From assembly GCA_963799845.1 (NCBI GenBank), contig CAWCYI010000004.1:1856001-1920000 (forward strand): a stretch of 64,000 nucleotides of DNA, given 5' to 3'. This DNA is from an uncultured Nitrososphaerota archaeon (lineage in GTDB: Archaea > Thermoproteota > Nitrososphaeria > Nitrososphaerales > CADDZS01). Position numbers and translations under genes: made by a program. The notes beneath the pieces were generated by a model. That model was given only the letters and a program-made list of their open reading frames with translations. It was not told the origin of the DNA and did no database searches. Positions 773-31,777 of the stretch are shown in pieces; position 1 is the first letter of the stretch; the number at the start of each line of letters is the position of its first letter.

Positions 773-1013
773 CTATACCGCCTAAGTAATTTCTGTTTCC
801 GAGCTATTATGATTTCAGATAGAATCTTCATACTTGAAGGGAACTGAGACTTGAAGGTGAACTCCGGCTTTTGGGGTCCCTCTTTATCAAGGAATCCAAG
901 ATAATTGTTCTAATTTTGATAGAACAGTTTACTGACATTGTCTGACCGCATGAAAGTGGTTGAGAGCCTTTCCCAAACCCCAGATAATTGGAAAAATGCA
1001 GGGGTATACTGCT

Positions 1014-1190
1014 CTAGGAATTTTTAGATCGCTGTGATTTTGGAGTATTCGGCGTTGCCTCCTCCTCCTCCGTCAAAGGGTACGGCTTTGTGTCTTTCTT
1101 TTCCTTTGAAGATCTATCAAGTTTGTCAGGTGTGGGAGCTTTCGTCGGCTCCTACTTTCGAGTCATATCCTGGTTTTCGGTTTTCTTCAT
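1014..1190 (-). pseudogene. Small hydrophilic K/E/P/T-rich protein with in-frame TAG at codon 13
   Basis: Hand translation MKKTENQDMTRK*EPTKAPTPDKLDRSSKEKKDTKPYPLTEEEATPNTPKSQRSKNS; composition resembles the other island microproteins. Confidence 0.35.
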
Positions 1191-1234
1191 GAAATCAACT
1201 CTTGTTTATCTGGGAAAATATAGACCCCTATCTC

Positions 1235-1339
1235 TCAACCTATGAGCGAGAAAAGCCTCCATAAATCGCGCAGATGCTTTGAAGTTTTTTCGCTAGTCTT
1301 GCTCTCTTGTTTGTATCCGACTAGTTGTTGCTTTGGCAT
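1235..1339 (-). CDS. 34-aa microprotein (N-terminus and promoter paralogous to 14669..14848)
   Basis: MPKQQLVGYKQESKTSEKTSKHLRDLWRLFSLIG; the upstream ~65 bp aligns with the region upstream of 14848. Confidence 0.45.
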   Translation of the reverse strand: MPKQQLVGYKQESKTSEKTSKHLRDLWRLFSLIG

Positions 1340-1748
1340 GATTCCCCTCAAAAAGACGATTGATAATTTCAATTATTTGTCGCAATCACAAAGAAAAAAG
1401 TTCTAGATCAATCAATTCTCAAGAATTAGTGGGTGATCGATCTCGGTCGTTCAGCCCGTTTCTTAACTGAGAAATATCTAAGCGGGCATATCCAGCATCA
1501 AGAATTATAATATGCGCTAGCACCTTTACGAACTAAAGATTAACTACAAGAGCGCGCTCTCTCTTGGAATCCTAAAGATTGCTCTCAACTTCGAGAACCT
1601 AAATATTCGTTGATCCGCGTGTTTTTTTGAATGATCCTTTTTCTCAAAATCTTATATGGCATAAATGAATTTTTGGCGGATTTCTTTGTTAGATAAGATT
1701 GTAACCTTTCATTAATCAATTTAGGGAGGAACAAATCTTCTGGTCTTA

Positions 1749-1895
1749 ATGCCAAAGGGAAAAACTCACCGTTTTACTTCGAAAGAACACAGGCAAGCCG
1801 AACACATCATAGAATCAGAGGAAAAATTGGGTAGGTCCAAAGAAAGGGCCAAAAGAATTGCGTATGCGACTGTCAATAAACAAAAAAAGTCTTAA
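1749..1895 (+). CDS. 48-aa basic microprotein of the 'RQxEHIxES..G....RAKxIAxxTVNK' family (often annotated plasmid-stabilization-like)
   Basis: Hand translation MPKGKTHRFTSKEHRQAEHIIESEEKLGRSKERAKRIAYATVNKQKKS; paralog at 8141..8329. Confidence 0.7.
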   Translation: MPKGKTHRFTSKEHRQAEHIIESEEKLGRSKERAKRIAYATVNKQKKS

Positions 1896-2096
1896 TTTTG
1901 GAAAGACTGAATTTCAAAGACTAATTTAATCGGCGCTCCAAAAGACTCTCGAAAAGTAGTAAATCGGTTTGTGGTACAATATTGACTGCCCAATGCGATG
2001 ATTATTAGAGCACCATAACCCCTCTGATATTTCAGTATAGAGAAATCATCGCATATGCTGAAATAAGACGACTGCATTAATTCAGACAGTGAATTA

Positions 2097-2945
2097 TTGA
2101 CCTTGGCTAACGAAAATATCACTACAGCCTCCACCGTAGATTGGAAAGAAATACAAAAGAAAGAGGCGAGAGGAGTAAACGGCTTTAACTTGGGAGAAGT
2201 TCAAGATTCAGGCCCCTCCTATGTCCACACACAAAAGGGAATTGCCAAGAAGGAACAATTCTACATTCCAAAATATTTGGTCGAAGGATACGATGGCAGT
2301 ATCTTGTGGTTCAACGTGTCTGAGGCCCAGGCACCTCAACTCGTACTCACTAGCCCGCCGTCAGACGAGGAATACAGAACGCGATACAGAACAAAAGAAA
2401 TGCGATCCGATATTGAGAAAACGATTCCAGTGATCAAGCGATCGCTTACGGGAAATCAAAGATTACTGAGGGATGTTTTGGTCGATGAAATGAGAGATCT
2501 TTACCATGCAGAAAATCAGCTCGTTAACGCACTGCCGAAAATGTCGGAGGCCGCGCGCGATCCACAGTTGAAATTATCATTTCAAAACCATCTTGAGCAA
2601 ACAAAGTTGCATGCAACTCGCCTTGAACAGGCTTTCAATATGCTTGGCGAACCCCCCCAGGGAAAACCGTGCAAAGGAATGATGGGTCTGATTCAGGAAG
2701 GTGAAGAGGAGATTATTGAAGGAAAGCAAAAGGAGGCCTTTGCAGCCGATCTCGGGTTAATCACTGCAGCTCAAAAGGTTGAGCACTATGAAATCTCTGG
2801 TTATGGTACCGTTAGAACCATGGCAGAAAAAATAGGCAAGCAAGATATTGCCTCATTGTTGCAGCAGACGGAAATGGAGGAAAAACAGACTGACCAATTG
2901 CTTACTCGGGCAGCAATGCCAATGCTGGACCGAGCATCAATGTAA
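2097..2945 (+). CDS. PRC-barrel-like N-terminal domain fused to YciF/DUF892 ferritin-like domain
   Basis: C-terminal DLYHAENQLVNALPKM...HLEQT...CKGMMGLIQEG...AAQKVEHYEISGYG is typical YciE/YciF; N-terminal KEARGVNGFNLGEV...FYIPK...YDG resembles 6177..6443. Confidence 0.85.
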   Translation: MTLANENITTASTVDWKEIQKKEARGVNGFNLGEVQDSGPSYVHTQKGIAKKEQFYIPKYLVEGYDGSILWFNVSEAQAPQLVLTSPPSDEEYRTRYRTKEMRSDIEKTIPVIKRSLTGNQRLLRDVLVDEMRDLYHAENQLVNALPKMSEAARDPQLKLSFQNHLEQTKLHATRLEQAFNMLGEPPQGKPCKGMMGLIQEGEEEIIEGKQKEAFAADLGLITAAQKVEHYEISGYGTVRTMAEKIGKQDIASLLQQTEMEEKQTDQLLTRAAMPMLDRASM

Positions 2946-3466
2946 CATAACCCGCATAATCGAAAGATAATGCGCTTTCGCAAAATCTGAATTTCACCTG
3001 GATAATTCATCGAACTTCAAAATTCGCAAGACGTCAAAACCGTTTGAATCTCTTGACTCTGAAATCGATAAAGGATCTAGCGTCACAAGATTACGACAGA
3101 AGACTCAAAGGTGTGTTCGCAATTCAGACGGAAAATTGCCAAGAGTGTCGCAGACGCGTTGAGTGTAACCCTCCTTACAACCGAGAAAGAGGACTTAACG
3201 ATGGGATACTGACAACACTCAGGCTCATACCCTGTATCTGAAGGGCTGAAATGGAGTGTCGCTAACCAGATTCCTGAACTCGTTGGTTTCCGGTTCCCTC
3301 GTATTTTTAGATGACATTGGAAATCCAATGAAGCTTGTGAGACAATCTCGACGGCACCCATTCAGTAGTGCTTTTTGAATTTTCTAACTAAAGATAATTC
3401 TATAGAAATCAATCTTTATAATTATTAGTCATTTGGAGTTGATACTCTTGAGGATGAGAGAGGTCA

Positions 3467-3607
3467 ATGTCAGCATTGATGAAATGTGAAGTGTGCGCCG
3501 ATATTTTCAATAAAAGACAAGAATTAGAAGTACATTATAGAGCGGAGCACAACCCGGAATCAAAAAAATCGAAGCAGAGTAACCTTCATCCAAGATTAAT
3601 CGAGTGA
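3467..3607 (+). CDS. 46-aa C2H2 zinc-finger microprotein
   Basis: Hand translation MSALMKCEVCADIFNKRQELEVHYRAEHNPESKKSKQSNLHPRLIE; TATA (CTTTATAA) upstream. Confidence 0.7.
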   Translation: MSALMKCEVCADIFNKRQELEVHYRAEHNPESKKSKQSNLHPRLIE

Positions 3608-3615
3608 TTATCGAA

Positions 3616-3780
3616 TTGTCAAAACACCTCCTGCAAGGGGAGAAAGATAAGATCAAGGGAAAGCTTCGCGTGGCAAAAGGAAGAATAAGCGGTAATCGGA
3701 CAGAAGTGGTGAAAGGAAGGCTTCAGCAAAAGAAAGGGATTCTGAAAAAGAAAATTTGGCGATTGAGGTACCGCCTATAG
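3616..3780 (+). CDS. CsbD-like small basic stress protein
   Basis: TTG start; DKIKGKLRVAKGRISGNRTEVVKGRLQQKKG follows the CsbD pattern KGKxKxxxGxxxGxxxxxxxGxxxQxxG. Confidence 0.55.
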   Translation: MSKHLLQGEKDKIKGKLRVAKGRISGNRTEVVKGRLQQKKGILKKKIWRLRYRL

Positions 3781-4072
3781 ACTTCGTGTTTCCACTATTT
3801 ATTTTATGTGCAACGTCATCCTTAGCGCTTTTTACGAGCGCTCATGGTCTCCCCACTTTCCGGTACAATTCCCTAGGCATAGCCAATGTCAATTAGAAAA
3901 GAATCCCATGACTCTTTTTTCAAAGATTCGACTAGACGATTCCCCGTAAACTTTCTTCGGATTTCAATAAGATTAAGCACGCTCGATCGAGAATTTTTCA
4001 AAAGAGACTTTTGGAAAACTTGCAGCGGCATCCATTTAGAGTACAAAGGCTATCGAGATACTCGATAATGTC

Positions 4073-4258
4073 ATGGGATTAGTCAATCTCGCAATCCTGG
4101 TCTTGATTTTATTCATCGTTTTCGCAGTCTTAGGATTCTGAGGCATAGCGGCAGCTCTTGGAAGCATTCTGTACCTTCTCATCATCGTTATCGTGGTCAT
4201 ATTCGTCGCAAGTCTTGTAGCTGGAAGATCTTGGTACGGATTAGCCCTAAGACAATAA
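4073..4258 (+). pseudogene. DUF1328/UPF0391 (YtjA-like) small membrane protein with in-frame TGA at 4139
   Basis: MGLVNLAILVLILFIVFAVLGF*GIAAALGSILYLLIIVIVVIFVASLVAGRSWYGLALRQ; AxLGFxGIA signature with two TM helices. Confidence 0.7.
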
Positions 4259-4619
4259 AAGTCGTTTATGATTTCTATTTTGATCTAACGACAAACTTCA
4301 TTTGCAAAAACTGAACCAACTTCAAACAAGTTTCTAAAAAAGTTCGATGCATTAATCTTATCACTAATTCTTAAAGAAGCTCGAATCTCACTGAACGAAT
4401 TACTTCAACGGCAGATTCACAGACTGTCCGCGATCGTCCGACTCGTAAGCCGCCGGAACGATTTCAATCATCGCCCGCCTCAGGAGTTGTCTGTGATATT
4501 TCGCGCTCACCAATTATTCCCCGGGAACTCGATTGAAACGTCGGTTCTCCTAAGCCGTAGGTGGAGGTTTAACGCGGATGTAGGGAAAACGCTTCTGTCA
4601 TGATAGAAAACGACCGCTC

Positions 4620-4886
4620 TTAATTTTCGTCAGCTAAATATTTTGAAATTAATCCTTTCATGATTTCGTAATCAATTTCGTCAGCAGGAATGATTCTGTA
4701 TGCTCTTTCTTCACTTCGAATAGTCTCTTTTCGAATGATTAATCCTTTGGTTTCTAAACCTTCGCATATTTTGGAAATAATCCCTGAACTTAGACCAGTT
4801 GAACTGACAAGATAAGATTGGTAGACACCTTCTCTTATTTCTGATGTTATTTTCTCGACAATGTCCCTGTCGGGATTCCCTCCCAT
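4620..4886 (-). CDS. Winged-helix DNA-binding protein (MarR/HTH-like)
   Basis: GVYQSYLVSSTGLSSGIISKICEGLETKGLIIR HTH-plus-wing pattern. Confidence 0.6.
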   Translation of the reverse strand: MGGNPDRDIVEKITSEIREGVYQSYLVSSTGLSSGIISKICEGLETKGLIIRKETIRSEERAYRIIPADEIDYEIMKGLISKYLADEN

Positions 4887-5129
4887 TTAGATAGGCCACA
4901 TCCCTTCTCACGCAAGAAAGTGATTTGGCTAGACTCCAATTAAAATATAGCGAATCGAGCTTTGAGATCCTCGGTCTTTCTCAGTCGAGGCGAAAATAGA
5001 CACTGTCGCTTCGGTTTAACTCACTACTTTCGCTTGTTTTTCGAGGTGTAGGCAAGCAAAGCAATGTCTGTGACTGGTCGGCGCATTATTCCGAGGAAGA
5101 GCGCCTGCTCCATACATGAAGGATTCTAG

Positions 5130-5429
5130 CTACCCTTTCCACAGTCCGATGCCGAACCCGATAATCCAGAAGATCGGAAACGCGTAGAATACAGCCCCGA
5201 TGTGGGACGCCTGAGAGAGGAAGATATCCACGATGCGGCTCCAGACATCCGACAGACTGATGAAGGGAATTGAAAGACCAATGGCACCGGCGAGAACAAG
5301 CCCCACAACTATGAGAATCGCGGAACTTATCCCCTTCTTTGCGGCGAGCCAAAGACCAGTCCATCCGCGAATAAAAGTACTATCGATACGACTCCGGCTA
5401 TCGTCGTTGGAGGCGCGATCAACTTTCAA
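5130..5429 (-). CDS. Small membrane protein, paralog of 11130..11423 (N-terminus divergent)
   Basis: AAKKGISSAILIVVGLVLAGAIGLSIPF...PIFWIIGFGIG aligns with AAAKGVTSIILIVVGLVIASFIGLSIPF...PILWIVGFLVG. Confidence 0.65.
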   Translation of the reverse strand: MKVDRASNDDSRSRIDSTFIRGWTGLWLAAKKGISSAILIVVGLVLAGAIGLSIPFISLSDVWSRIVDIFLSQASHIGAVFYAFPIFWIIGFGIGLWKG

Positions 5430-5436
5430 ATCACCT

Positions 5437-5745
5437 TTATGTTTGTACTAGTGAAGGTTCAGGGGGCGCGTTTTGTTTTAGACTTTCATTTCGCACTTTC
5501 GCAGATGGCATTAGCTCTTTGATCTCTTCGTATGCATTCAAGAATTTGAGTCCTTTTTCCGTTATTAAGTAAAGTCGAGCTCCTTCATCATATCTTACCA
5601 AGTCTCTGTCCTGGAGCAGGCCGAGATATTCAGACAGTTGGGCGTACGATAAGTAAGCGCTGTACATTATGCGAGTCTTGGTCGTACCTGATCCGATTGA
5701 CCGCAACATGCTGTCGATAATTTCTGTGCTGCTTCTGTACTTCAT
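5437..5745 (-). CDS. Archaeal winged-HTH transcriptional regulator (HTH_45/ArnR1-like), paralog 1
   Basis: MKYRSSTEIIDSML...TKTRIMYSAYLSYAQLSEYL...YLITEKGLKFLNAY. Confidence 0.9.
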   Translation of the reverse strand: MKYRSSTEIIDSMLRSIGSGTTKTRIMYSAYLSYAQLSEYLGLLQDRDLVRYDEGARLYLITEKGLKFLNAYEEIKELMPSAKVRNESLKQNAPPEPSLVQT

Positions 5746-5787: not shown

Positions 5788-5802
5788 TGGAACAATGTTT
5801 GT
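5788..5802. promoter_or_regulatory. Candidate 15-bp island operator upstream of wHTH paralog 1
   Basis: TGGAACAATGTTTGT, 43 bp from the ATG and ~5 bp beyond the TATA-like AATATTAA. Confidence 0.5.
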
Positions 5803-8906: not shown

Positions 8907-9071
8907 TTAGCTGATACCGTCTGAGACTTGCGATTCCCGTTCTCGTCTAGGCCCAGAACACTCATGGGAACTTAGATCAGCTTCGTTTGCAAAAGAACGC
9001 TTGCAAACGTTGCATTCGTAGGTCTTCCCTGGAGGGGGCGGAGTGATCACGCTCAAGAGATTCTCATCCAA
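8907..9071 (-). CDS. 54-aa C2HC/C2H2-like zinc-finger microprotein
   Basis: Hand translation from TTG: (M)DENLLSVITPPPPGKTYECNVCKRSFANEADLSSHECSGPRRERESQVSDGIS. Confidence 0.65.
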   Translation of the reverse strand: MDENLLSVITPPPPGKTYECNVCKRSFANEADLSSHECSGPRRERESQVSDGIS

Positions 9072-11939: not shown

Positions 11940-12473
11940 TCAGACACTTTCAATTGCTTCAAGCAACTGATGCTTGGAAATGGGCTTCGCTAGAATTAAG
12001 TTTAAGAATTTTTTTGAATCCCGAGGAACATCATAAGCAGTTATCATAATTATCTTGATATCAGAATTGATTTCTTTGATTTTATGAGAGGCCTCGAGCC
12101 CGTCCATGCGAGGCATCTTCTGGTCCATCAATATCACGTCTGGGTAGTTTCCTGGACTGGACTTTACAGCATTGACAGCTTCGACCCCGTCTTGGAAAAC
12201 GCGATCTACGGTAAATCCTGCCGATCTAAGAATAATGGAATAAAGATCCGCAATCTTTTTTTCATCATCGACTACCATTATCTTATAATCGAGAGATTTT
12301 CCGTTTTCTGGCCCTGTCTTGGATTTCGGATTATTGTTTCGAAGTCCTTTAGAGCGTTGCCCAAATGCGCGCTTTGACTCTGGAAAGCCCCAATCAGATC
12401 GATTTGGAAGATTTTCCTCGAAAAAGCTTGGCACGAGGACCTGCTTTGCACTTTTTGATTTTTTCGGAGTCAA
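11940..12473 (-). CDS. Stand-alone response-regulator receiver (CheY-like)
   Basis: IMVVDDE...DVILMDQKMPRMDGLE...IIMITAY...KP; overlaps the stop of the upstream kinase; true start may be later. Confidence 0.9.
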   Translation of the reverse strand: MTPKKSKSAKQVLVPSFFEENLPNRSDWGFPESKRAFGQRSKGLRNNNPKSKTGPENGKSLDYKIMVVDDEKKIADLYSIILRSAGFTVDRVFQDGVEAVNAVKSSPGNYPDVILMDQKMPRMDGLEASHKIKEINSDIKIIMITAYDVPRDSKKFLNLILAKPISKHQLLEAIESV

Positions 12474-14171
12474 TTTTCCACTCGTTCAGGCTTAAGTGAA
12501 ATTGGAAGCCAAATTCTAATCGTACTCCCACGTGGTTTTCGATCCTCGACCACTATCCTGCCATCATATCTATTTACAACGAGCGCGTGTATTATCGACA
12601 TGCCTAGACCGCTTCCCCTCGCTCCCGCAACAAACCTATCAAAGATCTTATCCTTCAATTCATAGGGGATACCGATTCCATTATCGGAGATCGAGATCTT
12701 GAAGTAAGGCTCCTCTCTCTCGATCTCGATCCAAAGTGGAACCGTATTTGACTCGGTATATTTTGCCGAATTTGAAAAGACATTGGTGAAGACTTCATCT
12801 ATGAGCTCATCCACTTCGATGTAAGTCTTCTTCTTTCTTTCTTTAGGCGAAATCTCGGTCTCTTCGCGGATCAGCTTGTCAGGAAACGCTTGTCGGACGA
12901 GCGTTAGCGATCTCTGTAGTGATTGAATAAGATCAATCGGGCCGAGTTCCGGCTTTTCTTCCGACAGAATCTTACCTCAGCTTCTTGCCCCTCTCTACCA
13001 AGGAAGATGCCCCGTCGATCGCATCAAGAAGGTCTTTTACAAGCCTTGCGCCCTCCACGTCTTCCGAAGCTTCGAGCCGCTCAAGCAAAAGCTCAGCACT
13101 CAATCTGGAGACCTGATTATAGTTTTTGATATCATGGGTCAGTATATCCTGAAGAAGTTGCGCCTGTTTTCTGCTTCTCTCTTCCATCTCCCTAAGCTCA
13201 CTTTCCTTCCAGAGGGCATCGAACACAGAGGCAATCCCAACGATCGTGTGTCTATTAGTCGTATAGATGTTAGAAAACACAGCGTTCTGCGTCGAGTCCG
13301 CTTCGGTATTCGAGTACTGGGTGATGAACATTTTCTTCATATCGTAAATCGTGATGCTTACGTTCATAGGCTCGATCTTTCTCCATTCAGCATTAGGTAG
13401 AATTTTCATTGCGGAGATGTCATTGCCAGGCGAAAGAACTCTAACTTGGAAGCCTCTTTCCTGCTGAAGTTGCGAAAGTCGTTCGAACATCTTGGAGTTT
13501 CTTGTGATCGTCTTGGGAGAGGCGACGATTAGGAGAGCTGATTCTCTGCATTCTTCCGTCATCTCCGTTCCAAGCTTGAAGACTTCGGTCATATCTTCGA
13601 TCAATCGCGTCTCCTCAATCTCTCGGCCTTCCTCTAACTGGCGAATCCGCGACTCGCCAGGAATAGACATCCGCCACATCATTTGGAATATCTGACTCGC
13701 TTGTGAGACTACGTCACTCTTATTGCTCCAGATTATTTCTCGTGGGAGGTCTGAGCCGGTGGCAGTTTGTTCCTCCATTACAGCGAGCTCGATTGCCACG
13801 TACTCGTCTCTCGACAAGGCGAAACTGATCTTGTTTTTATCAAGGTGCCTCACTTCTACACCGATTTCTGAAAGGGACTTGTAGTATGCCAGGTTTTCTC
13901 TTTGAAGGTCTGTGATTAATTGAAACTTGAATTTTGGATTTAGAGCGAATAGAGCCTTCGAAAGATCAATTGCGGCTTCTTGATCTCTGGGGACGCGACT
14001 ATCTGAGGAAGTTTTCAGATAAGAAGCCGTCGACCGCTCTATGAACGCCATTGAGAGCGGGGCAACTTCAGCTCCACTTACGAGCTTGGTCTCCTGAACT
14101 GTGGAAGAGGACGAAGAATCGACAACAGAATCAGAGCCTCCTCCAGTCTGGTGGTTGACCGTAGAAGACAA
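12470..14171 (-). CDS. Cytoplasmic sensor histidine kinase (frameshift near 12975)
   Basis: H-box LLQDILTHDIKNYNQ in 12972..14171; N/G boxes NVFSNSAKY, DNGIGIP and GSGLGMSI in 12470..12814; the intervening sequence reads GKILSEEKPELGPIDL after a 1-nt shift; paralog of 17175..18989. Confidence 0.88.
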
Positions 14172-14214: not shown

Positions 14215-14229
14215 GGGAGGATTGTTCCA
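14215..14229. promoter_or_regulatory. Candidate 15-bp island operator upstream of kinase
   Basis: GGGAGGATTGTTCCA, 6 bp beyond TATATATG and 44 bp from the start codon. Confidence 0.45.
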
Positions 14230-14668: not shown

Positions 14669-14848
14669 CTAAAACTTGTCGCAAATGACACATATGCCTT
14701 CGAGGTGCAGCGTCACTGCTGGTATGTTAGGATAGTGGGGATGTCTCTTGCAGTTTAGGCACGTGCTGTAGGTTACGCTTCGTGATGTTCTGGCGGATTT
14801 TTCCTCTGAGGCACTCTCCACTTTGGTTCCGAAAAGTTGTCTGGCCAT
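14669..14848 (-). CDS. 59-aa CxxC/CxxC zinc-ribbon microprotein
   Basis: Hand translation MARQLFGTKVESASEEKSARTSRSVTYSTCLNCKRHPHYPNIPAVTLHLEGICVICDKF. Confidence 0.65.
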   Translation of the reverse strand: MARQLFGTKVESASEEKSARTSRSVTYSTCLNCKRHPHYPNIPAVTLHLEGICVICDKF

Positions 14849-14926
14849 AGTTTTTCCCTCAAAAAACCATTTAATATTTCAACTGATTGCCGTATTCGAA
14901 GAGAAGAAAGTTCTAGAACATTTGAG

Positions 14927-16222: not shown

Positions 16223-16459
16223 CTAGGATCCGTTTGATTGAAGGGTCGCTCTGAACTGGCAATCAATTGAGAGTCCGCCTTCAGTTTTCTCGACGGAAAA
16301 TTTGTAGTTCTCGACCTTCGCGTCAACCTTTGCAAGATATTCCTGGATTTGACTGCCATAGGTCATGAGCTGGCCCTTCACGCTATCCATGGACTGGCTA
16401 AGATTTATGGCGTGCTCTGATTTGCGATCTTCTTTTTCTTTCATTTCTGTTCGAGACAT
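16223..16459 (-). CDS. Small conserved-looking hypothetical protein
   Basis: 78-aa ORF with its own TATA-like element and palindromic site (16505-16519). Confidence 0.6.
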   Translation of the reverse strand: MSRTEMKEKEDRKSEHAINLSQSMDSVKGQLMTYGSQIQEYLAKVDAKVENYKFSVEKTEGGLSIDCQFRATLQSNGS

Positions 16460-16504: not shown

Positions 16505-16519
16505 GGAAAGATTGTACTA
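16505..16519. promoter_or_regulatory. Candidate 15-bp island operator
   Basis: GGAAAGATTGTACTA, 46 bp from the start at 16459. Confidence 0.45.
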
Positions 16520-16611: not shown

Positions 16612-16626
16612 TAGAAGATTCTTTCG
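16612..16626. promoter_or_regulatory. Candidate 15-bp island operator upstream of wHTH paralog 2
   Basis: TAGAAGATTCTTTCG followed by TTATATTT; 38 bp from ATG 16664. Confidence 0.55.
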
Positions 16627-16645: not shown

Positions 16646-16984
16646 GTGGAAATCACAACACCCATGAAGTACAGAAGCAGCACAGAAATAATTGATTCGA
16701 TGCTCCGATCAATAAGATCCGGCGCGACGAAGACTCATATCATGTACCGTGCCTATATGTCCTATTCTCAGTTGAAGGAGTACCTCAAATTGTTGGAGGA
16801 GAGACAGCTGATAAGGTGCGAAGCCGGCTCGCAACTGTACGTCCTAACCGAAAAAGGGCTGAAGTTCATGAATGCGTACGAGAAGATCAATGAGCTTGTA
16901 CCCAGCATTAACGAAAGCAAGGGTCCTGTTGAAGACCGGTCAGAAGAAATTCCCGTCATAAAGAAACAAGCTTTCGAATATTGA
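16646..16984 (+). CDS. Archaeal winged-HTH regulator (HTH_45-like), paralog 2; likely start ATG 16664
   Basis: MKYRSSTEIIDSML...MYRAYMSYSQLKEYL...LTEKGLKFMNAY. Confidence 0.9.
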   Translation: MEITTPMKYRSSTEIIDSMLRSIRSGATKTHIMYRAYMSYSQLKEYLKLLEERQLIRCEAGSQLYVLTEKGLKFMNAYEKINELVPSINESKGPVEDRSEEIPVIKKQAFEY

Positions 16985-19035: not shown

Positions 19036-19050
19036 TGGAAGAATCTTCTA
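19036..19050. promoter_or_regulatory. Candidate 15-bp island operator (near-perfect palindrome)
   Basis: TGGAAGAATCTTCTA, 6 bp beyond AGTATTAA and 47 bp from the kinase start. Confidence 0.6.
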
Positions 19051-20309: not shown

Positions 20310-20550
20310 GTCTATCAGATGTTAAAATTAGCTGGGTAATTGTTCTTGGTTAGGCTGTTCGCATTTGATCCAAGCGGCTCCTTGGCATAGTCTCTCCTTT
20401 CTGAGATCATGGTTGATTCTTGGAACACTGCAATAATCCCATTCTGCCTAGTATCCTAGCGGCTGATATTATTGCCCTAGATTCATTATGGAAAAAAGTT
20501 CTAGTCTAAATATTCTGTGGAAAAGCTCGGGAAAAGTGGTTCAATGACAA

Positions 20551-20565
20551 TAGAAAAATGTTCTA
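20551..20565. promoter_or_regulatory. Candidate 15-bp island operator (perfect arms); a second copy lies at 20489-20503
   Basis: TAGAA-AAATG-TTCTA; TGGAA-AAAAG-TTCTA upstream. Confidence 0.6.
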
Positions 20566-20602
20566 TAACTATGTTGCATTATGGATAAGACCTCCGTGTC
20601 AC

Positions 20603-20851
20603 TTGGGAGACGACCGACGGTCTTTGAACTACCTTGTAACGTTTGATCAAGAAGCTGGAATGTTTTTGGCACGATCTCCTGCCAACCCCCAAATTACGGG
20701 AGAAGGTCCGTCTCTGTATGCTGCAATAGACAACCTGGAAGTAGAATTGAGTCAAAATACGCGCCGCTCAGAGAAATTAAACATGGACCTGGTAATTCGA
20801 GAAAAGGAAAGCGAAGTCGAAGTAACTGCAAAAATCTCAATTCTAGCCTAG
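20603..20851 (+). CDS. HicB-like (partial RNase H fold) small protein
   Basis: YLVTFDQEAGMFLARSPANPQITGEGPSLYAAIDNLE; start moved to TTG 20603 because the track's ATG lies inside the operator. Confidence 0.55.
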   Translation: MGDDRRSLNYLVTFDQEAGMFLARSPANPQITGEGPSLYAAIDNLEVELSQNTRRSEKLNMDLVIREKESEVEVTAKISILA

Positions 20852-21360: not shown

Positions 21361-21881
21361 CTAATTGTGCTGAGCGACTGTCAATGGGCTTCTTCCGGTA
21401 ACAACTTGCATAGTATCTGGACCGAGGTTTGCAAGCAGATCGATGATGGAAAGGTTTGGAACAAAGGTCTTGGATAGATGTTGCGAATATAGAGTCGGCG
21501 TGTAAGTTTGATACTGGACCGTTAGCCCGTTTCTTTCAAACAAGGATTCATCCATGTAATTTCTGGAACCGCTTCCCGCTACGTAGGTATTTGCACCCAC
21601 TGCTCTGCACACATCCACCAGTCTTTGCGTGGACTTTGATTCAATGCCCAGTTCCGATTCCCTGATCATCTCAATTCTTAATCCCAACCAGGATATCACT
21701 TGCTTTAGGGTTTCAAAATTTAGGTCAAACAGCATATCCCAATGTTTTCTGTACAACTGTTCAAAGTAAATCTCTTGTCGTATTGGACGTCGTCCATTAT
21801 CACGTAGAGATCGGAAAGACTCAGCCTGTGAAAGAAGCCACCATAAGGGAAATACTGGGGCTGATGTATCGCGACCTTCAA
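21361..21881 (-). pseudogene. WbqC-family protein with internal deletion/frameshift
   Basis: N-terminus (M)KVAIHQPQYFPYGGFFHRLSLSDLYVIMDDVQYDKRFT joins out of frame to YFEQLYRKHW...YVAGSGSRNYMD...FVPNLSIIDLLANLG; the usual NRNxI segment is missing. Confidence 0.8.
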
Positions 21882-23969: not shown

Positions 23970-24350
23970 TTAGTTGATAAATGATTCAGCCACATCTTCC
24001 AGCTTACTTCGTGATATTGCAGCTTCCAAAACTTGTTGCAGCTGCTGGTATTTACGCATGAACATCATCCCAGATTCTGTTGTGTAATAACACATGGTAA
24101 CGTGACTTTCATCCTTCCTTCCTTCAAGAAATTTGCAATTAAGTAGAAATGAAAGGTACTGTTGCATCTGTTTTGAGTTCAGATTGCAACTGTACATTAT
24201 TCTTGTCTTGACTGAGCCGGAAACACACTGAGAGAGGATCAACCAGATAATCTCAATCCACCCGCGCTTTCGTTTGCTAGATTGCAAATGTTCCTCTACA
24301 AGCGAATTCAAATATCCTCGCTCTCTCGAAGGTGGAACTTGCATGTTCAT
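23970..24350 (-). CDS. Archaeal winged-HTH regulator (HTH_45-like), divergent paralog 4
   Basis: KRGWIEII...KTRIMYSCNLNSKQMQQYL...YYTTESG. Confidence 0.85.
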   Translation of the reverse strand: MNMQVPPSRERGYLNSLVEEHLQSSKRKRGWIEIIWLILSQCVSGSVKTRIMYSCNLNSKQMQQYLSFLLNCKFLEGRKDESHVTMCYYTTESGMMFMRKYQQLQQVLEAAISRSKLEDVAESFIN

Positions 24351-25050
24351 GTTCCAGTTAGTATCTCCTCAAGGTTGATTCTTTGTTCTGGGGATATTCT
24401 GGGAATTCTCTCAATGGGCACCTGAGCGAGTGCCAAATCCTTCGTTAGACAAAGCTTCAAAACTTGAAAGCCTCCACGTGGTTTGTCGCAGTATTTAGGC
24501 GACTCTGAAGCGCCCGATACTCTGCAAGTCCCTTTATGGCGTTTGCCTTTAGGTACAGTTTACTATGCTGCGACCAGAAGATATCAATTAATCGGACTTT
24601 CTTGTTGATGACGTCAGAAATGTCAAAGTAAACTTGGGGAGAGAAATTCTTGGTAAGCGGGATCTCGTAAGCGAGAATGTTCGAATAGTAACGTCCCGCT
24701 TCCACTGTCGCGAGCGCGATTGCCCGATGATCATGGTGGGAGTCCCCGTCAGAGTGAGTCAGAATAAGGTCCGGTCTTGCCTTGTTTATTATGTGCTCAA
24801 TGTGGTTGATCAAATTATCATTAACGGAAAGCTTCATGTCTTCAAAATTGTCGATCCACAAGTTGGTTGCGCCAATAAACCTTGCCGATTCTTGCAGTTC
24901 CCTAGTTCTCTGAACCGGGTCTCCAGAGGCTGAACCTCTGGTCACTGCGTACATATTCACGAAATGACCTTGGCTGGCGCATTTTATCAAAAGCCCACCA
25001 CAACCCAATTCAATGTCATCAGGGTGGGCATCTATCGCTAATATGTTCAC
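24347..25050 (-). CDS. PIG-L/LmbE-family de-N-acetylase (1-nt frameshift near 24465)
   Basis: AHPDDIELGCGG and DSHHDH motifs; the restored C-terminus EAF(E)VLKLCLTKDL...EEILTGT ends in an ATGA overlap with the wHTH start. Confidence 0.88.
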
Positions 25051-25085: not shown

Positions 25086-25125
25086 GGGAATAATGTTCGA
25101 AACATTGTTCTCAAACATTGTAACC
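25086..25125. promoter_or_regulatory. Triple tandem copies of the island operator upstream of PIG-L
   Basis: GGGAATAATGTTCGA, CGAAACATTGTTCTC and TCAAACATTGTAACC at 12-13 bp pitch. Confidence 0.5.
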
Positions 25126-26322: not shown

Positions 26323-28258
26323 TTGAAAATACCAGACATTTCTTTTTCAAAGAGATCCTCACTCATAATTGTTGGAATAATCGTCATCGCTGCAGTCTTA
26401 TCTCTAGCTTCTCTCCTATCATACAGCTACACGTCTACGAATATAACAAATTCAGCAATCGGTGAAATCCATCTCAATGCTCAAATTCAAGCGAATGATA
26501 TGAGCAACTTGGTCGTAGCAAAGTTGGAATCTGTCTCTACCAATCTAGAAGTAATTTCCGGATCAAAAGCTGTCGAGAATCAAAATGTAACAGTAGTCCA
26601 GAGCCTCCTCGACGCAGCTCAGAATTCTACGAGTAATTTCACATTTTCTTACGCATGGATTAACAAATCAGGTATTTCGTTAGCCAGCTCTAATATTACG
26701 AATTTTGAAATTGCCAAGCAGGAAGGAGATCTAAACGAGAGCCAGAGGTCATTCTTTATAGAAGCGGAAGAGACGGGGACGACTTACTATAGCACTGCAA
26801 CAATCTCGGTTGTGAGTGGAAAGCAGTACATAGTGATAGACTCAACCGCTATTCATCGATCAATTAAATGGGTCACGCGCCACAAATCTGTTCAACGGAA
26901 TCTTGACAGCGTCAATTAGTCTCATTTCTCTAGGCAGGTACGTTCAAACCCAGTTATCCTCTCATTCCCAAAATTCCGTCGGACTTCTTGACCCGACTGG
27001 GGTTATTTTGTATTCAACTAACGAGTCGGCGATAGGAAGCAATGTTTTCGCAAACCAGTTTCAGGATTCGCTACCTTCAGCCCTAAAAGGACCATTCTAT
27101 TCCATGATCAACGAATCTCTTCTAGGACAGCCTGGAATTTCGGATTTTTCATTCAACGGTTCCAGCGGGACTTTTGCTTATCAGCCAGTATTTGTTCCCA
27201 GAGGATCCAATGAGTCAAACCCTCAAGAATTTGCAATACTTTTTATTTCTGCGCCTCACGTCTTGGCAGCGATCCAGACATCTCAAATTACTTTTCTTGG
27301 CGAAGTAACAGGAATCACAGTTGGAGGAATTGTTGCCGTCTCACTCGTTGCATCCATCACGGTATTGCGATGGAACAAGAGACTTGATGAACGCGTGAAA
27401 GAGAAAACTGCTGAATTAGTTTCTTCAAACGAAAGACTTGCTTTGGCTAACGCTCAGCTTGAAGATCAGAATAGAGCACAAAAAGATCTTATCAACATAG
27501 CCGCACACGAGCTTAGAACGCCCACTCAAAGCATCTTGGTAAGTACGGAAATAATGCAAGATACTTTGCGCTCGGCTGAAAAAGTTTCGTTTCCTTCTAT
27601 TCCATCAGCGGATAGCTCGCCCCTTTTGCAAAGAGCGATCTCATCCAACATAATCACTCCGGATTCAGCCCGGTCGACCGAGACTTCTTATCTAGATCTG
27701 AAAGAATTAGTTGAAACTACAAACAGAAACGCAAAAAGGCTTTCAAAACTGACTCAGAACATTCTAGAGGTTGCAAAGATTGATAATAAAGCCCTAAAAT
27801 TGGAACTTGAAACTTTCAACCTGAACGATACGATACGGGAAGCAATTGAGGATTGCCGCATGTCATCTTCGATTAATGGTTTTGGAAACTACTTCAAAAT
27901 CGTTTTCGAACCCAGTTCCTCTACGCTTCCAGTAACTTCTGACAAAACAAAAGTCTACGAGGTAGTCCAAAATCTATTGAGGAATGCAGTGGAACATTCA
28001 GGAAGCAGTGGTAAGAAGATAATTATTACAGCGGAAAAGTCGAGTGGTTCTATCCTGGTAAGCGTCAAAGACGAGGGAACTGGGATTGATCCTGAAATAC
28101 AACCCAGGCTGTTCAACAAATTTGTAACCAAAATGGGGACCGGACCTGGTTTATACATTTCAAAGGGATATGTTGAAGCGCTTGGTGGAAAAATCTGGGC
28201 CGAAAATAATTCCGACGGGCCTGGTGCGACTTTCTCTTTTTCTTTGCCGCAGGAGTAA
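26323..28258 (+). CDS. Membrane sensor histidine kinase with extracellular Cache-like domain (frameshifted ~26840-26900)
   Basis: TM1, extracellular domain, TM2, AAHELRTP, NLLRNAVEH, DEGTGID, GTGPGLYIS. Confidence 0.88.
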
Positions 28259-28317
28259 CAGAAGAAGATTATCGATTTGATGATACCAAACTTTACGTTT
28301 CAGAAAGTCTGCTGACT

Positions 28318-28716
28318 TCATAGCGAACTTACAATTTGATCCGTCTTTACGTTTGCCAGGGATTCAGCGAGCTGTTCAGATGAAAAAGGTTTCAAGATAT
28401 AGGGCAATCCCGCTTCAATCGCCTTTTGCCTAACGAAATCGTACCCAGTTGCGATGATTATCTTGGTCTTATTTCGGTATCTTTGGATGATCCTGGCCGC
28501 TTCTATTCCATTCATCTCGGGCATTCGATAATCCATTATGATAATATCAAATGACTGACGATCTTTCGCCATCGCCCTGACTATCGAAGTTCCATCTTTG
28601 AAAATAGACGGAGGTGAATATCCTAACTTCTGAATAACTCTTGAATAAAGATCGGTCAGGTTCACATCGTCGTCGACTACGGCAATTTTCAAATTCTTAT
28701 TTTCTTCCACTTGCAA
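28318..28716 (-). CDS. Stand-alone response-regulator receiver
   Basis: IAVVDDD...DIIIMDYRMPEMNGIE...IATGY...LKP. Confidence 0.93.
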   Translation of the reverse strand: MQVEENKNLKIAVVDDDVNLTDLYSRVIQKLGYSPPSIFKDGTSIVRAMAKDRQSFDIIIMDYRMPEMNGIEAARIIQRYRNKTKIIIATGYDFVRQKAIEAGLPYILKPFSSEQLAESLANVKTDQIVSSL

Positions 28717-28814
28717 AAATCCACTCTATCTTATGAGAATACTCGGTTGATGAATACGCACCAGTGCCGAGTCTCGTATAAAAAGGGGCCGTCAATTTTG
28801 CTGGAAGTTTCCTA

Positions 28815-28829
28815 TAGAAGAATCTTCCA
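28815..28829. promoter_or_regulatory. Candidate 15-bp island operator (near-perfect palindrome)
   Basis: TAGAAGAATCTTCCA, one mismatch from the reverse complement of 19036-19050. Confidence 0.55.
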
Positions 28830-28918
28830 AATTATTACCCTCAATAGATGATCAGTAAGTGCATGTTTTTCCGAGAGCAGTTCACGGAAATTCTTGTCAG
28901 GAAAAGGAGACTCCATTG

Positions 28919-29375
28919 CTAAAAGGGGTAAAATTTGGGGAACGTAACTCCAAATGCCAGACCGAGGACGACATCAAGTACAACCAGTACTATCCATGCT
29001 ATTACTATAATCGCCAAAGCTCCGAACCAATTCGTTTCGAAAGAAGCCCGATATACCGCGAGCCAACGTCTGATCCGAGGATGTTGAAATTGCAGTCGAA
29101 CTATTGGCGGAGGATTGGTTCTGATTCGTGAGGGAAGTAGTACTAACATCGCTCGACGCCGAGCTAATCGTCGAATTTGTATCATTTTTCGCGCTGAGGG
29201 GATCAGTCGAATTCGGTAGTTGAGGTGCCGGAATTTGGTTTTGGTCTGCCAGTCCCCGAATAAAGAAGACGCCAACGATCGCCGCAATTACTATTAATGA
29301 AATTAAGAGGAGTGTGAACAAGACAAGAAGACCGTTCTCCCTGTCACCCTTCCTCTCGTAAGGTCGATAAGACAC
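28919..29375 (-). CDS. Membrane protein with S/T-rich loop (likely frameshift joining the two track ORFs)
   Basis: N-terminal TM and S/T/N-rich stretch in 28974..29375; C-terminal TM WFGALAIIVIAWIVLVVL in the other frame. Confidence 0.5.
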
Positions 29376-29484
29376 CGTAATCCGAATAAAATACCAATTA
29401 GTTGCTTTATTGTCGGTGGAGCTTTGTTATCTAGGATAATTTTGGATACGAACCCTTGCTCATTTATAAATAAATACCAAAGAT

Positions 29485-29499
29485 TAGAACAATCTTACA
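29485..29499. promoter_or_regulatory. Candidate 15-bp island operator upstream of wHTH paralog 3
   Basis: TAGAACAATCTTACA followed by TTTTATTA; 37 bp from ATG 29536. Confidence 0.55.
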
Positions 29500-29526
29500 T
29501 TAAATTTTTATTATCGCGGCTCATCC

Positions 29527-29850
29527 GTGATTCTTATGAAGTACAGAAGTAGTACAGAGATAATTGACACTATTCTCAGGTCGTTAGATTCTGGTGCTAC
29601 TAGAACACGGATAATGTACAAGGCATATCTCTCCTACTCCCAATTGAAGGAATACCTCTCCCTGCTCCAAGACAGACAACTTCTGAAGTACGAAGAAGGG
29701 TCGCAGGTCTACACTATTACCGAAAAGGGACTTCGTTTTATGAACGCCTATGATGAGATTAGAGAATTGGTATCGGGGAGTCAAGAGGAAAATTTTCAAA
29801 AGGAGAGTCTGGGGACAACTCCGAATAAGAACCCTGAACTCTCCCAGTAA
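29527..29850 (+). CDS. Archaeal winged-HTH regulator (HTH_45-like), paralog 3; likely start ATG 29536
   Basis: MKYRSSTEIIDTIL...MYKAYLSYSQLKEYL...ITEKGLRFMNAY. Confidence 0.9.
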   Translation: MILMKYRSSTEIIDTILRSLDSGATRTRIMYKAYLSYSQLKEYLSLLQDRQLLKYEEGSQVYTITEKGLRFMNAYDEIRELVSGSQEENFQKESLGTTPNKNPELSQ

Positions 29851-29943
29851 TAAGTCTCTTTTTCCAGCAGAATTTCTTCCCCTCTCATGGTTTTTGAGGG
29901 GCGTTTATTCAGATCTCATTTCTGTTTATTCTGAGATATTTTG

Positions 29944-30480
29944 TTACGTGGAGTAGTGAGCAAGAAGCGTAGAACTCTGGGTGAGAGTTTCGGTCAGGCA
30001 GGGATCAGTACTCCCGTTAGACCAGTGTAGAAATGTGTACTGGTTATAGTTCTCCACGCAAGAGGTGTAAGTCTGTCCTTTAGTTGCTCCAGAGTAAGTC
30101 AGAGGGGAATATCCTTGACTGACAACCTGACCTGATGAATTTGTAATATAATGCGTAGAGTCCCGTAATTTGATTTCCCGACTGTGAAACTGTCTTAATG
30201 GTCAAAATTAAGCTGCCCCCTCCTGTCCCGCCATCGTCCGAATAGGAATCTCCACCGTAAATAGAGACCGTCCCCTGAGTTGAGGAAAGAACGCTGTTGC
30301 TTGAACTCAGGACTTCGATTTCTGCGCTCAGTGGCAAGATGAATTTCCCAACCTCGATGGTCGCCGAGCCACTTCGCTTTGGTGCACTCGCCAATTTACA
30401 TTCCCGTTACTGGGATTGATTAGCTCGACTTTCGCAGCACTTGAGGGTAGACCCGAGACGGTGAGATATTCGCGCTTGTC
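29944..30480 (-). pseudogene. C-terminal fragment of an S/T/G-rich extracellular repeat protein
   Basis: Across frameshifts it reads YLTVSGLPSS...TVSQSGNQITGLY...SGQVVSQGYSPLTYSGATKGQTYTSCVENYNQYTFLHWSNG...AHYST*; no start or signal peptide. Confidence 0.6.
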
Positions 30481-30696
30481 AAATAATAATTCAGAAACGT
30501 GGCGTAGAGTTCCGATCCAGTGTGCGACGTTTCGGGTTCAAGGTATATTTGGAATGGCTTTGGCATCAAGCACTTCAGCGATTAAATCTTGAAATTATAG
30601 TGTACGCGCGAAAGGAATACCGCTTTAGAATAATTTGACGGGGCGTATGAAAATACGGATGATAATCAGTCTGATCGAGATTTAACGAGAAATTTT

Positions 30697-31503
30697 CTAT
30701 GTGGCGATAGGCAGTGCAAATCTAAAGTTCGCTCCGCTCTGGGGCTTTGGATTGTTGGCAGCCATTATGGTGCCTTCGTGAGCCTCGATAATCTTTCGCG
30801 AAATGTACAGTCCCAGGCCCATTCCAGAGCCGGTGTCAGTTTTTTTGCCAAAGCGAGTAAACAAATGCGGATATACCTGGGAACTAATACCCGGGCCAGA
30901 GTCACGTACAATCACAATTGCGTAGCGCCCTGCTCTTTCAACTGCCATTTCAATCGCTCCCTCCTCCGTTACTTTTACCGCGTTCCCGAGAATATTGAAT
31001 AGAACTTGGGCTATTCTGTTCCTGTCGGCGTAAACATTGATTTCCTCACGAGAATCAAATTGCATTTGCACGTTCCTTTTCACGAACCGTCTGTGATCCT
31101 CCTGTACTTCGGAAATTAGAGCCGTCAGGTTGAATGTTGAACGTTCTAAAATAATGTTACGGGACTCGATTCTTGCCACATCCAGTATGTTTTGAGCCAG
31201 GTATTGCAGGCGGTAGGCGTTGCGGATAATGATTCGAAGTTCTTCCTTTTCCTTTCCCAACTCGTTCTGCAACATTTCAGCATTGAAAAGGATGGGCGAG
31301 ATCGGAGCCCGGAGTTCGTGGGCGGCAATATTGATGAAATCAGATTGATCTTCGAGTTGCTTTTGAAGCGCTTTCGTTTTTGACCCATTGGCACTTTCAC
31401 TAGCATTCGATATCTTGAGTACTGAGATAAATTCGTCAAGGGCTTGAAGCCCACGGTTAGATCGATCGCCAAGATTAGCGCGTATTGGTTCTTCGTTTAT
31501 CAA
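30697..31503 (-). CDS. Histidine kinase with minimal or no sensor domain
   Basis: AAHELRAP, NILGNAVK, DSGPGIS, GMGLGLYIS; only ~50 aa precede the H-box. Confidence 0.92.
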   Translation of the reverse strand: MINEEPIRANLGDRSNRGLQALDEFISVLKISNASESANGSKTKALQKQLEDQSDFINIAAHELRAPISPILFNAEMLQNELGKEKEELRIIIRNAYRLQYLAQNILDVARIESRNIILERSTFNLTALISEVQEDHRRFVKRNVQMQFDSREEINVYADRNRIAQVLFNILGNAVKVTEEGAIEMAVERAGRYAIVIVRDSGPGISSQVYPHLFTRFGKKTDTGSGMGLGLYISRKIIEAHEGTIMAANNPKPQSGANFRFALPIAT

Positions 31504-31777
31504 ACGAATGACGCCATAATAATCATACGAAGTTACACTTAAGGTCAGAAGTCATATTGTACCAATCGAATGATCTGGTCGTCTAATTCATCTCTAAATC
31601 AGAATGAAAAGATCATTTTGCGTTCTGTAGCTAAGACAACTGATCTCGACAAATGATCCAGCTCTTAAAGTAATTGGAAGATTTCTCAAGAGATTCTTCG
31701 ATTCCATTCTGAATTAGAATTTTCTAGACAATATTATCTGTCTGTATTATTTAGCCCGATCTTGCATCAACTCATCC

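Follow-up and report, generated by a model that had tools for sequence, protein, structure and literature searches.

A palindrome next to the TATA box as candidate operator of an Sso10a-family regulator and a linked TFB gene in Nitrososphaeria

The stretch of 64,000 nucleotides (nt) analysed here, called the window in the following, represents positions 1856001-1920000 of contig 4 from a 4.6-Mb archaeal assembly (GCA_963799845.1, an uncultured Nitrososphaerota archaeon) with 47% GC. It contains recurring copies of a 15-bp palindrome, some of which precede genes for small winged-helix proteins starting with MKYRSS. This palindrome is probably an autoregulatory operator, which would be bound by an Sso10a-like dimer beside the B recognition element (BRE) of the promoter and would control the gene of the regulator itself together with a linked gene for a TFIIB-like transcription factor (TFB). 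As judged from sequence comparison, the system is best read as an autoregulated archaeal transcription factor with a palindromic operator, and its unusual feature would be the conserved coupling to a TFB paralogue.

The palindrome upstream of regulator and TFB genes

The initial annotation had described the palindrome as a recurring element of the window, which is captured by the pattern TRGAANAWTNTTCYA. Exact matches to it occur three times in the window (at 19036, 20551 and 28815) versus 0.02 expected by shuffling, and none of 100 shuffles reached three. Allowing for up to two mismatches, we obtained 19 matches versus 8.83 expected, with 17 in the largest shuffle; 17 of these matches lie before 31.7 kb and two after 32 kb. 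The entire genome contains six exact matches, including the three in the window, and 59 matches with up to one mismatch, five of them within window positions 1-32000. Because the pattern had been defined on this same region, its window counts are partly circular, and the evidence was therefore sought elsewhere.

Relatives with proteins that start with MKYR are widespread. A scan of one genome per species returned at least 587 stretches encoding MKYR relatives, and a metagenome scan returned 592; the whole-genome relatives and the titled records of homologous loci belong to the Nitrososphaeria or "Thaumarchaeota". We used the best 80 of the at least 587 genome loci as orthologue set and extracted 110 nt upstream of each gene; one locus offered too short an upstream sequence, resulting in 79 usable and 55 non-redundant regions. 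None of the conclusions draws on the unpublished genome G001. In an initial look, the closest orthologues in two genomes of the same genus and in another family carried the palindrome immediately before the TATA box. An expectation-maximization motif search was performed on the 55 regions without any palindrome constraint and without a preset motif, starting from 571 seeds taken from the sequences themselves. All of the best seeds yielded the palindrome motif and outscored the TATA-box seeds. The converged matrix reads [A/C]-T-A-G-A-A-n-A-W-T-[G/C]-T-[T/A]-[C/A]-[C/T], with a better conserved TATA-distal half, and its consensus of about TAGAA-s-AWT-s-TTCTA matches the palindrome of the initial annotation.

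Twenty of the 55 orthologue regions contained the pattern defined on the window when at most one mismatch was allowed (shuffle mean 0.10, maximum 1 in 200 shuffles), and 37 contained it with at most two (shuffle mean 2.0). Of 34 further non-redundant loci from metagenomes, which resemble neither the training set nor the window, 25 contained a site of at least 12 bits, compared to a shuffle mean of 0.35 and a maximum of 2. Over 86 distinct pairs of protein and site, the seven core columns showed entropies of 0.09-0.61 bits versus 1.3-1.9 bits in the flanks. The flanks of most sites do not align with one another, and the same applies to those of the three in-window promoters.

The position of the site is conserved as well. 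Its 5' end lies at -67 to -63 from the start codon in 26 of the 55 orthologue regions, at -56 to -50 in 28 and elsewhere in one, and 31 of them have a TTWWWATA box whose first base is at -31 or -30. The gap between the end of the site and the TATA box amounts to 6 nt in 19 and to 19 nt in 18 of 52 scored sites, and the proximal of these two registers overlaps or abuts the usual position of the BRE. Many orthologue loci carry tandem sites 13 nt apart which occupy both registers, and at L021, which is present twice in one genome, the motif is located between the TATA box and the ATG. The enrichment and positional bias over shuffled background are thus borne out by the fresh loci and by the fixed gap to the TATA box, and the proposed placement next to the BRE and upstream of TATA agrees with the direct adjacency observed both in the spacing within the window and in the orthologue register. 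Because the TATA box starts at about -31 (centre about 27 nt before the ATG), the usual archaeal distance from TATA to the transcription start implies leaderless or near-leaderless transcripts; they are probably leaderless, which would place the site between about -51 and -37 or between about -65 and -51 relative to the transcription start. These registers were measured on the orthologue sets instead of on crude ORF starts: a base profile aligned on the start codons of 2278 crude open reading frames (ORFs) revealed no TATA signal, because gene starts called at the first ATG are too poor. The sequencing runs listed for this organism comprise three entries of soil-metagenome DNA from a single study and none of RNA.

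To return to the genome under study, we scanned it with the 15-column matrix, which derives exclusively from the 55 upstream regions of other genomes, collapsing the two strands. Sites scoring 14 bits or more number 64 in the whole 4.6-Mb assembly, and eight of them fall into window positions 1-32000, where 0.39 would be expected (Poisson P about 1e-8). No other 32-kb bin of the genome is as rich: this one holds 11 sites of at least 12 bits, the runner-up seven. All nine sites of at least 13 bits in the window fall at 12-32 kb. No matrix site of at least 12 bits was found in window positions 32001-64000, as anticipated by the initial annotation, which had seen no comparable copies past about 33 kb. 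Seven of the eight island sites of at least 14 bits are located outside ORFs, versus 24 of the 56 elsewhere in the genome. Likewise, a TATA-like octamer starts 0-9 nt away from seven of these eight sites and from 17 of the 56 others; such octamers accompany 42% of random intergenic island positions, so the excess is modest (binomial P about 0.01), and the definition of TATA-like is loose. At the remaining strong site, 14901, the box is 18 nt away. The second-richest bin (contig 6, 1.472-1.504 Mb) was taken as a chance cluster, with six of its seven sites inside ORFs. The strongest sites outside the island are found on contig 4 at 1758520-1758536 (19.8 bits) and on contig 6 at 1549516-1549532 (18.8 bits), both in stretches without long ORFs; the one on contig 4 is a tandem pair sharing TCTAGA.

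The same matrix separates the 18 copies initially listed by hand. Eight of them are strong with 13.4-19.1 bits (14901, 16505, 16612, 19036, 20489, 20551, 28815 and 29485), two are intermediate (1391 with 12.3 bits and 14215 with 11.3 bits), and the remaining eight (817, 1692, 5788, 6478, 6575, 20894, 25086 and 31550) score at background level with 0.6-9.9 bits, values reached once per 130-5900 bp of the genome. The palindrome as an enriched element is upheld by its three exact copies and by the enrichment obtained with the foreign matrix, and about half of the listed copies represent noise. Of the sites postulated before all three MKYRSS genes, those at 16612 and 29485 are strong and the one at 5788 is weak (4.5 bits). 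Sites before several kinase genes are not supported: only that of the 604-amino acid (aa) kinase is preceded by a strong site, and the copy at 31550, assigned to the kinase gene at 30697-31503, scores 3.3 bits. A strong site before the TFB gene was missing from the list.

With eight of 18 listed copies at background, one may ask whether the sites are functionless, either as chance matches in A/T-rich spacers or as relics of duplicated promoters. Some spread by duplication is indeed visible: positions 1351-1410 and 14861-14920 form a direct repeat of two site-bearing promoters that are 73% alike over 60 nt. Each copy shows on the minus strand a motif site, 18 nt and a TATA-like box of the TTGAAAT type and thus represents one of two paralogous distal-class promoters, and the small ORFs downstream (45 and 59 aa) are dissimilar. 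Part of the local expansion of sites therefore appears to have come about by promoter duplication. An unbiased count of exact palindromes, which does not reach significance (see below), would also fit a chance origin. Nevertheless, we find such an origin hardly credible for the element as a whole, given that the matrix from foreign genomes yields an enrichment of about 20-fold or greater, that dinucleotide-preserving shuffles never come close, that the flanks of most sites do not align, and that motif and register are conserved across families with diverged flanks.

The second conserved location of the site is the promoter of a TFB paralogue. Such a gene follows the regulator gene within 1.5 kb at 12 of the 80 genome loci, and the distance between the two genes is 292 nt in a genome of the same genus (on the same contig) and 1.9 kb in another family and in the genome studied here. 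Only the island copy of the eight TFB paralogues of this genome has a site (15.3 bits at -65), with at most 4.4 bits for the others. We tested 17 TFB promoters, namely 16 within about 2 kb of an MKYR gene, including that of the window, and one of no known linkage. The best upstream site was reached by no more than 51 of 500 shuffles in 14 of the 17 and by no more than six of 500 in six of them; the strongest one (L053, 20.9 bits at -52) stands directly before TATAAAT. No site was detected at three of the 17 promoters, nor at two further TFB genes from genomes without the regulator. Fisher's combined P for the TFB promoters is 1.5e-9, a value that is too optimistic because the genomes are related and hence not independent of each other. 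We further observed that the linked TFB promoters of the Nitrosotalea and Nitrosotenuis type (L032-L041 and L074) share a longer block, ...CTATCCTGCAAAGAGCTTTAAAACTAG..., which includes the TATA box and lies downstream of a motif-like half-site.

As far as the sequences tell, the TFB promoter is the only target besides the regulator gene that is conserved elsewhere. Because the TFB site recurs in other genomes and the site before the 604-aa kinase gene does not, the conserved core of the regulon would consist of the regulator's own gene and the linked TFB paralogue, and the remaining sites seem to reflect a local expansion. In this genome, which has three regulator paralogues in one low-GC region, the site would have spread to about nine strong copies within 20 kb, including those at one histidine kinase gene and several small ORFs.

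The presumed binder and its mode of action

All three MKYRSS genes match Pfam HTH_45 (PF14947) with 74-76 bits at a cut-off of 25.5. Winged-helix protein 3 (29536-29847) additionally matches the NCBIfam model NF053610 (Sso10a_fam) with 79.4 bits at a cut-off of 60 and the sequence of PDB entry 1r7j with a phmmer E value of 6.9e-10. Its residues 1-80 were modelled as a monomer by AlphaFold2 with a mean confidence (pLDDT) of 92.8, giving the elements H6-16, H23-30, H34-46, E50-53, E58-61 and H63-79; the tail past residue 80 does not look helical. The best PDB match of the model is again 1r7j, with a TM-score of 0.86 and a root-mean-square deviation of 1.1 Å over 75 columns. From sequence and model, the MKYRSS genes are assigned to the Sso10a family of winged-helix proteins.

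The spacing of about 10 bp between the halves of the palindrome fits a winged-helix protein acting as a dimer. Because the site is conserved before the protein's own gene, shows dyad symmetry and is paired with a winged-helix fold, we infer that the binder would be a dimer of the MKYR-type protein whose genes carry the palindrome. It would occupy the site at either of the two conserved distances to the TATA box (6 or 19 nt), the shorter of which would bring it up against or over the BRE. As to the outcome, we lean slightly towards the regulator aiding recruitment of TFB or TBP over blocking it, which would establish the positive feedback suggested initially. Activation is favoured by analogy, because the sites of TFB-RF1 and Ptr2 (see below) have a similar position upstream of the BRE and because half of the sites are distal and clear of the core promoter. 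A feedback loop on the MKYRSS genes is plausible because the link between motif and gene is kept in the orthologues of many genomes.

Several observations weigh against an autoregulatory operator bound by the MKYR protein. A forward site of at least 10 bits is absent from eight of the 55 orthologue regions, and one of at least 12 bits is absent from nine of the 34 fresh loci. The orthologues without a site include L138 and L139, whose proteins are 84-85% identical to winged-helix protein 3, and the fourth paralogue in this genome (L019) has no motif site upstream either. In the 86 pairs, residues of the regulator share no more mutual information with bases of the site than with the flanking columns, so covariation lends the binder no support. 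Against the element itself stands an unbiased enumeration of exact palindromes over the island, in which AGAA-N5-TTCT ranked only 9th of 129 (seven versus 1.87 expected, P 0.003), which is not significant after correction for multiple testing. Exact matches to the pattern numbered 0-3 in five genomes with the regulator versus 0-5 in five genomes without it, a comparison confounded by A/T content; four of seven exact matches in relatives lie inside long ORFs. Nine loci with relatives of the 604-aa kinase, eight in four other genomes of the family and one being the paralogue in the same genome, showed no comparable site at their predicted promoters, the starts of which are uncertain; in one of these relatives, L130, a match of 13.0 bits lies 30 nt ahead of a GTG that is doubtful as a start codon. 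Moreover, the assignment of the binder follows the heuristic that such a site before a regulator's own gene reflects autoregulation. In 1r7j and 1xsx the winged helices are kept apart by an antiparallel coiled-coil rod, according to the PDB titles, and by analogy such a rod may not fit half-sites 10 bp apart. Sso10a proteins are also described as architectural, with bending, bridging and filament formation as their activities. Finally, some placements of the site are compatible with repression, namely the overlap of the proximal register with the BRE, the motif downstream of the TATA box at L021 and the site at 20551 past a TATA-like box.

The latter placements fit a repressor that would use the same operator and the same binder. 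In this case, the dimer beside or over the BRE would bar TFB, resulting in negative autoregulation, and distal sites would cooperate or form loops with proximal or downstream ones. Negative autoregulation is common among small archaeal regulators, and the tandem sites 13 nt apart at many orthologue loci would serve such an arrangement well. Looping between paired sites is conceivable because Sso10a1 is presented as a bridger of DNA duplexes in the available part of PMC4941522. We regard a repressor as possible, if somewhat doubtful, since about half of the orthologous sites are of the distal class, ending 19 nt before the TATA box and thus clear of BRE, TATA and transcription start, where repression by occlusion is unlikely. 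The known archaeal regulators bound wholly upstream of the BRE usually activate.

A different binder would be a further explanation of the missing covariation between regulator and site. Candidates are the linked TFB paralogue, for which the motif would act as an extended upstream element, or one of the other DNA-binding proteins encoded in the island, i.e. the diverged HTH_45 protein (23970-24350) and the PadR-like or MarR-like protein. The linkage of regulator and TFB genes at 12 of 80 loci and the fixed register of the site relative to TATA and BRE are consistent with the first of these. A 15-bp dyad symmetry, however, suggests a dimer and not the monomeric TFB core domain, and most loci of Nitrososphaeraceae carry the motif without a TFB gene within 1.5 kb. 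The PadR, MarR and diverged HTH_45 genes are not conserved neighbours in the loci read, whereas the MKYR gene is the sole constant neighbour of the motif over the 55 and 34 loci, a constancy that is partly by design because the loci were chosen by that gene. Another binder than the MKYR protein is therefore considered unlikely.

Regarding the architectural character of the family, the palindrome might also serve as a loading or bridging point for an Sso10a-type protein that organises the nucleoid of the island, rather than as a promoter element. The family is described as chromatin-organising by its NCBIfam name and in the available part of PMC4941522, about nine strong sites are clustered within 20 kb, and the exact sites at 20551 and 28815 lack a clear target gene. 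The modelled fold also resembles AspA, the centromere-binding protein of pNOB8 (ranks 14-36 of the structure search). Against this stand the sharply defined gap of 6 or 19 nt to the TATA box among the orthologues and the fact that genomes with only one or two sites have the site ahead of the regulator's own gene; both are features of promoters rather than of chromatin loading. A purely chromatin-related function is accordingly very unlikely.

The autoregulatory operator may be extended to a more specific scheme, which we rate as rather unlikely. Here, the Sso10a-like dimer at the BRE-abutting palindrome would recruit its cognate TFB paralogue to promoters that are poorly read by the housekeeping TFB, would switch on the gene of that very TFB, and would serve in this genome as the missing DNA-binding output of the surrounding receiver-only regulators and kinases.

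Sites and genes of the low-GC island

The features of the window and of the adjoining part of contig 4 are collected in Table 1. The sites point to winged-helix genes 2 and 3, the TFB gene, the 604-aa kinase gene and the ORFs for 59, 78 and 97 aa as putative targets, and weakly to winged-helix gene 1 and the gene for 399 aa.

Table 1. Palindrome sites and genes of the low-GC island. Positions refer to the window unless contig 4 is stated; scores in bits were obtained with the matrix from other genomes. Gene starts are simple ORF calls, so that distances to start codons in the window may err by a few codons.
Feature	Position	Strand	Details
Site TAGAAGATTCTTTCG	16612-16626	+	18.3 bits; starts 52 nt before ATG of winged-helix gene 2; TATA-like box 5-6 nt on
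Site TAGAACAATCTTACA	29485-29499	+	14.4 bits; starts 51 nt before ATG of winged-helix gene 3; TATA-like run directly after
Weak site before winged-helix gene 1	5788-5802	-	4.5 bits, 3 mismatches; good half TGGAACAATG; TATA box TTAATATT 5 nt past the site on the minus strand
Exact palindrome, best site of the window	19036-19050	-	19.1 bits, second best in the genome; starts 61 nt before the 604-aa kinase gene; TAAAAATTAATA directly after it on the minus strand
Site before TFB gene	31712-31727	-	Matrix match 31713-31727, 15.2-15.3 bits; starts 65 nt before TFB ATG; AATATTAT 2 nt beyond it on the + strand
Strong site, distal class	14901-14915	-	16.0 bits; starts 67 nt before 59-aa ORF (14669-14848); TATA-like box 18-22 nt on
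Site before 78-aa ORF (16223-16459)	16505-16519	-	14.4 bits; starts 60 nt before the ORF
Site upstream of 97-aa ORF (20558-20851)	20489-20503	+	13.4 bits; TAAATATT 3 nt after
Exact palindrome	20551-20565	.	16.6 bits; 62 nt downstream of site 20489; overlaps first ATG of 97-aa ORF
Exact palindrome	28815-28829	.	17.8 bits; between receiver gene (28318-28716, minus) and ORFs of uncertain reality; AATTATTA directly after it on the + strand
Intermediate site	14215-14229	-	11.3 bits; starts 58 nt before 399-aa gene of unknown family (12972-14171); CATATATA 6 nt on
Winged-helix gene 1 (MKYRSS)	5437-5745	-	Pfam HTH_45, E 2.3e-21
Winged-helix gene 2 (MKYRSS)	16664-16984	+	Pfam HTH_45, E 3e-21
Winged-helix gene 3 (MKYRSS)	29536-29850	+	Pfam HTH_45, E 1.2e-20
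Diverged gene with Pfam HTH_45	23970-24350		Carries this domain, as do the three MKYRSS genes
TFB gene (TFIIB-like paralogue)	31778-32707	+	Island end, near winged-helix gene 3; Pfam TFIIB repeat, E 2e-28
Histidine kinase gene, 604 aa	17175-18989	-	Pfam HATPase_c; putative target specific to this genome
Small C2H2 zinc-finger ORFs, eukaryote-type	554-772 and 8907-9071		Pfam zf-C2H2, E 1.9e-07; zf-met, E 2.4e-05
Further signalling genes			Five stand-alone receivers, several histidine kinases, a KaiC/GvpD-like ATPase
Further regulator and stress genes			PadR-like, MarR-like, universal stress protein
Fourth MKYR paralogue	contig 4, 1840104-1840391		16 kb before the window, in the low-GC stretch
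Paralogue of the 604-aa kinase	contig 4, 1849823-1851343		In the low-GC stretch

The arrangement at 29485 recurs in the orthologues L002 and L003 of the same genus. A second, weaker match with two mismatches precedes the TFB gene at 31675, and the 78-aa ORF is divergent from winged-helix gene 2. No adjoining TATA-like box was found for the site at 20551 in the spacing check, and this site lies downstream of the TATA-like box belonging to the 20489 promoter. The middle of the 97-aa ORF resembles a HicB/UPF0150-type fold by eye, without a family match in Pfam or NCBIfam, and because of this resemblance the true start of the gene may be further downstream. Three tandem words similar to AACATTGT, which resemble half-sites, were noticed at 25086-25125 (matrix score 9.9 bits) between a gene for a PIG-L deacetylase (24457-25050, minus) and a receiver gene (25255, plus).

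The first 32,000 nt of the window have a GC content of 41-45%, compared to 46-51% in the remainder. They belong to a low-GC stretch of about 52 kb (contig 4, about 1836001-1888000) that sets in about 20 kb before the window and shows 41-46% GC throughout versus 47-53% in its surroundings. This island is dense in signalling and regulator genes as revealed by a Pfam scan. A tRNA scan of the window found no tRNA genes and hence no hint of an integrated element flanked by them.

Some genes of the island appear to be interrupted. A WbqC-like gene is apparently split into the overlapping ORFs 21361-21756 and 21720-21881, which may reflect a frameshift; in another genome (L032), a WbqC-like gene stands beside the regulator gene with a motif site 85 nt upstream. 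An ORF coding only for a HATPase domain (12470-12814) overlaps the receiver ORF 11940-12473 by 4 nt on the same strand, and the 399-aa ORF (12972-14171) upstream of that pair shows weak similarity to kinases. Together, these three ORFs may represent a broken or split hybrid kinase.

Relation to known systems and significance

TFB-RF1 of Pyrococcus furiosus and Ptr2 of Methanocaldococcus jannaschii are activators that bind just upstream of BRE and TATA and recruit TFB or TBP. The palindrome described here shares with their sites the location upstream of or abutting the BRE and the fixed register to the TATA box. Ptr2 belongs to the Lrp/AsnC family, whereas the MKYRSS proteins yield only Pfam HTH_45 above the cut-off and no AsnC/Lrp match, so the analogy concerns position and not membership. 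Linkage of the regulator gene with a TFB gene is, to our knowledge, not a known feature of the TFB-RF1 and Ptr2 systems. For SurR and TrmBL1/Tgr of the Thermococcales, it depends on the position of the site whether activation or repression results. Like theirs, the sites found here lie mostly upstream of BRE and TATA and in a few cases downstream of TATA (L021 and 20551), but families and motifs are unrelated.

The inverted GAA and TTC words also recall the heat-shock element of eukaryotes, which is bound by the winged-helix protein HSF, and a winged-helix protein is likewise presumed to bind the palindrome. The wing of HSF is mentioned in the available part of PMC4941522. In contrast to the contiguous nGAAnnTTCn of the heat-shock element, GAA and TTC are 5 nt apart here and surround a conserved AWT, and the resemblance is superficial.

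The closest relatives of the presumed binder are Sso10a and Sso10a-2 of Sulfolobus (now Saccharolobus) solfataricus (PDB 1r7j, 1xsx and 4hw0), with which it shares the family and the fold, in which a C-terminal helix follows a small winged helix. In the available part of PMC4941522, Sso10a1 and Sso10a2 are reported to bind DNA in an architectural manner, with bending, bridging and filament formation. The MKYR subfamily differs from them by the conserved and positioned palindrome before its own gene; Sso10a is described there as an abundant architectural protein, and that part of PMC4941522 mentions no specific site.

We know of almost no pairs of transcription factor and operator in the Thaumarchaeota, i.e. 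the ammonia oxidisers and their soil relatives. A literature search, with most subscription journals outside it, returned no description of the motif, of a specific site for the Sso10a family, or of a thaumarchaeal pair of regulator and TFB genes. The available parts of the mdRNA-Seq paper PMC5069720 and of PMC9239043 contain nothing on the motif.

The analysis provides a defined site of 15 bp, a small protein, known by name and accessible to recombinant production, and a conserved second target in the form of a TFB paralogue. It would also explain the local pattern in this genome, where three regulator paralogues in a low-GC region of about 52 kb coincide with about nine strong sites within 20 kb of it. 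The Sso10a family, hitherto filed under chromatin proteins, becomes testable as a family of sequence-specific regulators, and the role of one of the many TFB paralogues of the Thaumarchaeota becomes approachable. A dedicated pair of regulator and TFB, if true, would correspond, in archaea, to an alternative sigma factor together with its activator.

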